Origin: Escherichia coli
GTDB taxonomy: Bacteria > Pseudomonadota > Gammaproteobacteria > Enterobacterales > Enterobacteriaceae
NCBI RefSeq assembly: GCF_003334385.1
Contig: NZ_QOWN01000054.1
Length of the DNA: 31,048 nt
Strand: one strand, 5' to 3'
Position 1 is the stretch's first letter. Every line of letters begins with the position of its first letter. Of the stretch, positions 6,820 to 7,800 are shown in pieces. Under the pieces are notes generated by a model. The model was not told the origin of the DNA and searched no databases. It was given only the letters and a program-made list of their open reading frames with translations. The translations under genes were made by a program, and so were the position numbers.

Positions 6820-7515
6820 TCAGAACGTTTTCTCGTTGGGTTGCCAGCGACAGAAATCAGAGTTTGCCACTAACAGTAATTGCGAACCTTCGGGCGCTTC
6901 CAGCCATGCCACGCTGACATCAACAGAAGAGCGGCTCTGGCGGCGCTCGATATGCGCTATCGCCTGCGAATCTAAATCAGGTTTAATGGTTTGCCCTTCG
7001 CAGGTGGTCACGGTCTGTTCCATCGCATGCCAGCGCCCCTGGCGCAGCACGACTCTCCCCTGACGTAAGGCATCGCTAATCTGGCGGATCTGATCAGCAC
7101 GATAACGGTATAAATCGATTTGGTCGTTAGAAAGCTGCTGCTTTTCCCCATCGGATTCACGTTGCATAAAGCTCAGATCACCGCGATCGTCAAAACGCGC
7201 GCGAATATTCACCGGCGGTTTGCTGTAAACATTGATATTGATGAGCGTGAGGTTATCGCCCTGCCAGCGATACTCTCGCGTCGTGGTATCGCCACTGCGC
7301 CACGGGCTAAACACGGCAAGCAGATGCACATTATCGCCGCTGTCTTTTCGCCAGATGCGTACCGCGCCCTGGTCTTCAGCAAATCCACTGGCGGTAAAGG
7401 GAGGAAGTGAAGAGTTATGACTACAGGCAGTGAGAAGCAGAGCGCCAGCCAGCATCAATGATCGACGCCAGAAAGACAAAAGGGGTGAAACCACCCCTTC
7501 GTTAAAACTGTTCAC
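6820..7515 (-). CDS. yjaH: DUF1481-family putative lipoprotein
   Basis: ORF 6820..7521 (GTG start). It has a lipoprotein-like N-terminus (LAGALLLTAC lipobox). I prefer the second GTG at 7515 (231 aa); 7521 remains possible. Confidence 0.8.
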   Translation of the reverse strand: MNSFNEGVVSPLLSFWRRSLMLAGALLLTACSHNSSLPPFTASGFAEDQGAVRIWRKDSGDNVHLLAVFSPWRSGDTTTREYRWQGDNLTLININVYSKPPVNIRARFDDRGDLSFMQRESDGEKQQLSNDQIDLYRYRADQIRQISDALRQGRVVLRQGRWHAMEQTVTTCEGQTIKPDLDSQAIAHIERRQSRSSVDVSVAWLEAPEGSQLLLVANSDFCRWQPNEKTF

Positions 7516-7527
7516 TGCCACGCAATC

Positions 7528-7800
7528 TTACTTAACTGCGTCTTTCAGTGCCTTGCCAGAAACAAATGCCGGTACGTTAGCTGCGGCAATTTTGATTTCT
7601 TTACCGGTCTGCGGGTTGCGGCCAGTACGCTCAGCGCGGTGGTTCACTTTGAAGGTACCGAAACCAACCAGTTGTACAGCATCGCCTTCTTTCAGAGACT
7701 CAGTAATTGCAGCCAGAGTGGACTCCAGAGCAGCTTTAGCCTGGGTTTTGGACAGTTCTGCTTTCTCTGCAATTACATCAATCAGTTGAGTCTTGTTCAT
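7528..7800 (-). CDS. hupA: nucleoid-associated DNA-binding protein HU-alpha
   Basis: 90-aa [74 protein letters not shown]..., recognised as HupA. Confidence 0.97.

Follow-up and report, generated by a model that had tools for sequence, protein, structure and literature searches.

In Escherichia coli, a conserved intrinsic terminator of hupA, the gene for HU-alpha, lies within the first 17 codons of yjaH, the gene next downstream, which encodes a predicted lipoprotein of the DUF1481 family. The junction was studied in a 31,048-nucleotide stretch of contig NZ_QOWN01000054.1 (assembly GCF_003334385.1), hereafter the window, whose numbering is used throughout and on whose minus strand both genes lie. 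Taking the account as a whole, it is probable that yjaH is expressed from transcripts that read through this terminator and that its translation starts at GTG codons lacking a Shine-Dalgarno (SD) sequence. The junction is identical to positions 4200250-4200699 of E. coli K-12 MG1655, where hupA is annotated at 4200281-4200553 and yjaH at 4200566-4201261, and the same DNA was found in 5,426 of the 5,426 complete E. coli genomes searched.

The hupA terminator and its 3' end in vivo

A consensus scan of the minus strand returned one terminator-like site, GAAGGGGTG-GTTT-CACCCCTTT followed by TGTCTTTCTG (7500..7470). An earlier note on this DNA had stated that the junction contained no terminator; the hairpin begins 28 nt past the hupA stop, just beyond the 18-nt span flagged there, and the statement is contradicted by a 9-bp hairpin with a U-rich tail and by a Term-seq 3' end at 7476. 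The stem is GC-rich, with 5 G-C pairs among its 9, and closes a 4-nt loop. It folds at -13.9 to -14.5 kcal/mol (-13.9 for the hairpin alone) and is the centroid structure of the region. The tail has at least 5 T in 8, as the scan requires, with a U-tract that is broken after four U's, and this interruption together with the moderate Chen-model score (5.76) would fit a terminator that is less than maximal and leaky. In the 233-aa form of YjaH, the hairpin corresponds to codons 8-14 (E G V V S P L) and the first base of codon 15, and hairpin and tail together fall in codons 8-17.

Conservation of the hairpin was assessed in 81 Enterobacteriaceae species (80 species-representative loci fetched) and in 12 distant DUF1481 loci, which carry homologs of 26-66% identity and include Atlantibacter, Dickeya lacustris, Proteus mirabilis, Morganella morganii, and Pantoea sp. 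IMH. A GGGG...CCCCUUUU hairpin is present in every locus compared, 20-40 nt past the hupA stop, all 12 distant loci included. Among 32 distinct gap-free sequences, 98.6% of the cells at paired positions are standard pairs, and two of the nine stem pairs show compensatory changes (C-G<->U-A in one, G-C<->U-A/U-G/A-U in the other); the observed pairing or covariation score was reached by none of 500 shuffles. The minimum free energy (MFE) folds retain the terminator hairpin with no competing helix for terminated and read-through RNA alike, suboptimal structures not having been searched systematically, and an Rfam scan of 7350-7950 at E<=1 gave no match.

The RNA end itself is present in published Term-seq data. 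Adams et al. 2021 (PMC7815308) list a 3' end at MG1655 4200605 (+), which the MG1655 coordinates and the identity of the window to MG1655 place at window position 7476 (...CACCCCUUUUGU-3'). Average reads in the three conditions were 102,752 (lysogeny broth, optical density 0.4), 27,872, and 14,561. The end has a Rho score of 0.74 with bicyclomycin, "No" significant Rho region, and its intrinsic terminator score is 5.76 against a threshold of 3. It is classed there as "internal" to yjaH, at +39, and the entry is not discussed. The reason why it was not assigned to hupA as a "primary" end is that it lies 52 nt past the hupA stop, and that class needs <=50 nt after a stop codon. In the slice from +26 to +61 of open reading frames (ORFs), the same data set holds about ten ends with an intrinsic score of at least 3, among them fecC +56, yeiW +44, fdoG +46, and melR +61, and the yjaH entry has the highest read count of these. 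Overlap of a terminator with the opening codons of the following ORF is thus rare, not unique. A weak 3' end at MG1655 4200389 (+), window position about 7692 and +108 of hupA, has 789-1,441 reads and neither an intrinsic nor a Rho signature (PMC7815308), and is probably a processing site inside hupA. The supplements of TRAINSPOTTER, Saito 2020, TERMITe, SMRT-Cappable-seq, Conway 2014, and Cappable-seq (the last searched by coordinates) gave no hupA/yjaH result.

Comparative evidence on the yjaH start

The two candidate GTG starts of yjaH (Table 1), their lack of an obvious SD sequence, and the assignment of the product as a DUF1481 lipoprotein had all been stated in the earlier note, and all three claims stand. 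The ORF list and the annotation place the GTGs 6 and 12 nt past the hupA stop, the best duplexes with the anti-SD sequence at the 16S 3' end reach -1.4 and -1.5 kcal/mol, and YjaH matches Pfam DUF1481 over residues 44-229 (E 1e-72), with a sequence-predicted lipobox that includes Cys33. In E. coli, MG1655 included, RefSeq and its Prokaryotic Genome Annotation Pipeline (PGAP) choose the GTG at 7515 (231 aa).

The gene order yjaG (DUF416)-hupA-yjaH occurs in every locus long enough to show it. Because the adjacency of the hupA stop and the yjaH start is kept in 81/81 Enterobacteriaceae representatives and in 9/12 distant loci, the juxtaposition is, judged by its distribution, not due to chance. 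The start codons are kept as well. Codon 1 (GTG 7521) is of start type in 77 of the 81 species, being ATG in 4; the remaining 4 have GTA and all retain the codon 3 GTG. Codon 3 (GTG 7515) is of start type in 76; the other 5 have GCG or GTA, and each retains codon 1. The two are never lost together, and GTG 7521 is probably the ancestral start.

The reading frame after these codons is also kept open. No species has an in-frame stop in yjaH codons 1-24. Across the first 51 nt there are no distinct stop-triplet sites in frame versus 6 and 6 in the other two frames, where they include TAA triplets arising in variable hairpin loops; the absence of all 12 sites from the yjaH frame has a probability of about 0.008 under an even spread, the events being not fully independent. 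The spacer between the hupA TAA and the first GTG varies from 5 to 8 nt in Enterobacteriaceae through indels of 1-3 nt, and the three indels downstream of the GTG are each of 3 nt, one of them in the hairpin loop. The downstream candidate start, TTG 7479, is TCG in nine species (the Citrobacter amalonaticus group and Kluyvera), in which the next start-type codon would leave only 4-11 uncharged residues before the lipobox Cys; such a stretch is, on sequence grounds, not a plausible signal peptide.

Nine of the 12 distant loci (Proteus, Morganella, Dickeya, and Atlantibacter included) have an ORF that crosses the hairpin in the same frame (GGG G.. ... CCC CTT TT.). Their start-type codon lies 3-10 nt past the hupA stop, and the CCC codon follows 10-12 codons later; the corresponding distance for E. 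coli GTG 7521 is 12 codons. In the remaining three, yjaH starts after the terminator, and its frame has no start-type codon ahead of the hairpin. Of these, Pantoea sp. IMH and a second locus have spacers of 60-75 nt, one of them with an AGGAG of its own, and the third locus has an ATG 13 nt after the stem. The upstream GTGs are favoured as the real yjaH start because the start codons are kept, the frame is open, the indels are of 3 nt, nine species would have no alternative, and the distant loci agree.

The Pantoea sp. IMH locus (L088, about 1084-1260) has a further peculiarity. Its yjaH begins at an ATG of its own about 75 nt past the hupA terminator, and its first codons, CAT TCC CCT CTT CGT CTC CTT TCC ("HSPLRLLS"), resemble the 3' arm and tail of the hupA terminator, which hints that the terminator region was duplicated and that a degenerate copy lies within the ORF.

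Expression of yjaH and competing explanations

Established here or in the literature are the hairpin with its covariation, the Rho-independent in vivo 3' end, and the comparative signature of an upstream ORF start. On this basis, hupA mRNA would be mainly monocistronic, ending at the Rho-independent terminator (hairpin 7500-7479, 3' end 7476), and yjaH would be initiated at the SD-less GTG 7521 and/or 7515, so that the terminator stem doubles as code for residues 8-14 of an unusually long n-region. Since the start codons lie upstream of the hairpin, no promoter is possible between the terminator and the yjaH start, and the yjaH mRNA would have to begin in or before hupA and read through the hairpin. 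Its source would be read-through from the hupA promoter. YjaH would be made from the minority of transcripts that pass the hairpin and then be weakly translated, and the terminator would act as a fixed attenuator holding the yjaH:hupA ratio low. The earlier note had arrived at read-through co-transcription and weak translation from a supposedly terminator-free junction. That premise is false, and the conclusion is partly right for a different reason, namely that yjaH starts upstream of the terminator and so needs read-through; the proposed weak translation fits a GTG with no SD and, like our own reading of it, comes from sequence. A promoter of yjaH together with a sharp drop in coverage after hupA had been named there as grounds for abandoning co-transcription. 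The sharp 3' end exists in the Term-seq data, which supplies half of those grounds; the scans gave no conserved promoter.

Initiation of yjaH may further be helped by ribosomes that end at the hupA stop. The 6-12 nt spacing (5-8 nt to the first start across Enterobacteriaceae, 2-9 nt to the first start-type codon in the distant loci), the SD-less downstream start, and a small hairpin at the stop and start codons (7541-7520) make such coupling to hupA translation plausible. In this hairpin the loop contains the hupA stop UAA and the 3' arm takes in G and U of GUG 7521; it folds at -9.2 kcal/mol (z -3.0, 3/200 shuffles), and its topology is that of the MFE in 3 of 4 other lineage variants. Covariation gives it no support, as its one variable pair is standard in only about 30 of the 81 species. 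A ribosome terminating on hupA would open the hairpin and might aid initiation at the GTG.

A number of observations weigh against this account. From the GTGs the signal peptide would have 31-33 residues, with a 20-residue n-region from GTG 7521, which is long for a lipoprotein, and TTG 7479 would yield a textbook signal peptide of 18 residues. Mean column conservation by codon position is 0.95/0.92/0.94 over yjaH codons 1-15 (81 species); the hupA tail has 1.00/1.00/0.87, and yjaH codons 21-40 have 0.76/0.91/0.63. The stretch 7501-7523, GCGTGGCAGTGAACAGTTTTA(AC), is more conserved than hupA synonymous sites. Without third-position relaxation, the conservation of codons 1-15 reflects constraint at the RNA or DNA level and is not by itself proof of translation; even the decoupled Pantoea sp. 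IMH locus has a similar GTGAA-AGTTTTAAAC ahead of the hairpin. Six of the nine agreeing distant loci had been picked from predicted N-termini already at the upstream start, and only L085, L086, and L089 are unbiased in this respect. DirectRNA-seq window counts around the 3' end are 379 upstream and 401 downstream (PMC7815308), with no drop of the kind expected of a strong terminator. The filter applied in the same study implies a transcription start site (TSS) in the 3' half of hupA or in the spacer, and some yjaH mRNA may come from inside hupA.

The signal peptide and the even conservation would suit an alternative in which the annotated start is wrong and yjaH begins at TTG 7479, formed by the last stem bases and the U-tract, to give MSFWRRSLMLAGALLLTAC, with AAGGGG of the hairpin 5' arm as the SD and the upstream GTGs and open frame as by-products of a conserved hupA 3' UTR (untranslated region). 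The upstream AAGGGGUG pairs with the anti-SD at -7.6 kcal/mol, the TTG is kept in 72 of the 81 species, CCCCUUUUG recurs in distant loci, and in Morganella and some metagenomic homologs PGAP and gene callers place the start in the loop or after the hairpin. We nevertheless regard a TTG start as unlikely. The nine species with TCG would be left with no other usable start, the SD-like bases are 14 nt away and sequestered in the stem, and a non-coding 3' UTR would not be expected to show frame-specific absence of stops, a 3-nt loop indel, two starts that are never both lost, and GTG-to-ATG exchange. Lineages that do start after the terminator have no upstream start codon.

The TSS implied by the published filter would instead suit a promoter of yjaH inside the hupA coding sequence (CDS) or at the hupA stop, with essentially all transcripts from the hupA promoter ending at the hairpin and yjaH expressed independently despite the overlap. 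Entry 4200605 is retained in supplementary file 3, whose rules require a Thomason-2015 TSS 21-200 nt upstream (PMC7815308). A standard scan of 6500-8200 found no sigma-70-like promoter; a relaxed scan found one weak -35/-10 pair at the stop codon, AAGGCA / TAAGAT (7530-7525), from which transcription would begin near 7518. Internal TSS calls are numerous and often weak. The TAAGAT is not conserved, being TAAGAC, TAATT, or similar in most species, and a transcript begun there would still face the terminator, which makes independent expression of this kind improbable. At the other extreme stands unattenuated co-transcription with no terminator, in which weak translation would alone set the expression gap. 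The short stop-to-start spacing and the missing SD would suit it, and it hardly deserves belief in view of the hairpin, which covaries and has a U-tail, and of the dominant, Rho-independent end mapped to that tail in vivo, the Term-seq end having already refuted it.

The terminator may also be something other than a passive attenuator, in a joint proposal of read-through gating and non-stop translation. A ribosome that has finished hupA, reinitiates at the GTG, and keeps pace with RNA polymerase would open the hairpin's 5' arm and permit read-through, so that yjaH mRNA would be produced only while being translated. On terminated hupA mRNA, ribosomes started at the GTG would run off after about 14 codons with no stop codon; this would feed rescue by transfer-messenger RNA and strip the protective 3' hairpin, and could explain selection for a very weak, SD-less GTG. 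The geometry permits both, with 15-21 nt from the start to the stem and an RNA 3' end that falls within codon 16. We hold the proposal to be quite unlikely, and the fixed attenuator within yjaH remains the preferred reading.

Other features of the locus and comparison with known systems

Table 1. Elements of the hupA-yjaH junction in window coordinates.
Feature	Position	Strand	Remarks	Basis
hupA (HU-alpha) CDS	7528..7800	-	stop TAA 7530-7528	ORF list, RefSeq annotation of identical DNA
yjaH ORF (predicted DUF1481 lipoprotein)	6820..7521	-	converges on zraP	ORF list, annotation, homologs
First candidate yjaH start, GTG	7519..7521	-	6 nt after hupA stop; 233-aa form	longest ORF
Second candidate yjaH start, GTG	7513..7515	-	12 nt after hupA stop; in frame; 231-aa form	
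Terminator hairpin	7479..7500	-	9-bp stem GAAGGGGUG/CACCCCUUU, loop GUUU	scan, fold, covariation
Interrupted U-rich tail	7470..7478	-	stem-closing UUU, then UGUCUUUCU	mapped RNA 3' end at 7476
Near-invariant stretch GCGTGGCAGTGAACAGTTTTAAC	7501..7523	-	yjaH codons 1-7 and hupA 3' UTR	even conservation at three codon positions
Tentative small stop/start hairpin	7520..7541	-	ACGCAGUU-AAGUAA-GAUUGCGU; candidate coupling element	fold
Rest of predicted YjaH lipoprotein signal peptide	7423..7470	-	W18-R19-R20, hydrophobic core, lipobox	translation

In the YjaH protein, a basic n-region (R19-R20) is followed by the hydrophobic core SLMLAGALLL and by the lipobox L30-T31-A32-C33 (7434-7423), which meets the pattern [LVI][ASTVI][GAS]C and whose C33 is invariant among 25 diverse homologs. 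An NCBIfam scan of YjaH gave no match. F-W-R-R-S-L-M-L (residues 17-24, window about 7450-7473) was considered as a twin-arginine translocation motif, which it superficially resembles, the signal peptide also being of that type in length; judged by eye, the reading was rejected, the RR being missing in several distant homologs (WKISGL, FNKPTL, IRQGLL). Pairing of GCGTGGCAGTGAACAGTTTTA with the hupA 5' UTR was likewise rejected, since 44% of shuffles were as good as its -16.1 kcal/mol.

At its far end, yjaH (stop 6820-6822) converges with zraP (plus strand, end 6818) at a distance of 1 base, and the pair has been given as a convergent "excludon" (PMC12288877). A 300-aa entry from a single ENA contig (P0002) is an in-frame HupA-YjaH fusion without the stop, the GTGs, and the hairpin 5' arm; it could represent either a deletion variant or an artefact of assembly. 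Upstream of hupA, between the yjaG stop at 7987 and the hupA ATG at 7800, a 12-bp GC-rich hairpin, UUUCGCCCCCC...GGGGGGCGAAA (7903-7936, minus strand), folds at -26.2 kcal/mol (z -3.7, 0/200 shuffles). On the minus strand A7 comes after it and on the plus strand T7 comes before it, so that neither strand has the polarity of a canonical terminator, and its loop contains the sole promoter-like -10 upstream of hupA (TACATT, 7917-7912). Papers on hupA mRNA (RaiZ/ProQ) concern its 5' UTR only.

The overlap bears on how the locus is read and handled. It corrects a likely misreading of hupA and yjaH as simply co-transcribed, explains a very strong published "ORF-internal" yjaH 3' end as the hupA terminator, and supports the annotated yjaH start over a more canonical-looking one downstream. 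Deleting or tagging sequence at the 3' end of hupA or the 5' end of yjaH will disturb both genes. Should ribosomes initiate on terminated hupA mRNA, non-stop translation would have a built-in source in this very abundant transcript.

Several systems offer parallels. In the E. coli rpsU-dnaG-rpoD operon, the partial, operon-internal terminator T1 between rpsU and dnaG lowers downstream expression. The hupA/yjaH junction resembles it in the sequence of a very highly expressed gene, a Rho-independent terminator, and a gene that would be weakly translated, low in abundance, and reached by read-through. T1 is intergenic, whereas the hupA terminator sits within codons 8-17 of yjaH, with the start codon before the hairpin.

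In the leader-peptide attenuators trpL, hisL, and pheL, a short translated stretch runs into a terminator hairpin, and at hupA/yjaH, too, the position of a ribosome could in principle influence termination. Unlike in those leaders, the translated ORF is the structural gene yjaH itself, without leader regulatory codons, and the predicted MFE folds contain no antiterminator pairing. Termination-reinitiation coupling between adjacent genes is exemplified by trpE-trpD and trpB-trpA. There as here, stop and start are a few nt apart; the yjaH start has no SD, and a tentative small hairpin covers its first GTG in E. coli. The trp genes overlap, whereas hupA and yjaH are spaced by 6-12 nt, and the small hairpin does not convince by covariation.

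Among the ORF-internal intrinsic ends of PMC7815308, the hupA/yjaH end is one entry and is like the others in that respect; unlike those entries as catalogued, its overlap has been demonstrated to be conserved across the order, in the present comparison only. A leaky terminator between highly and weakly expressed genes is already known, and the 3' end was in a public data set. The new points are the recognition of the "ORF-internal" end as that of the hupA terminator, comparative backing for the annotated yjaH start, and the retention of the overlap across several Enterobacterales families. The hupA/yjaH junction is an ordinary gene-dosage arrangement in an unusually tight form.

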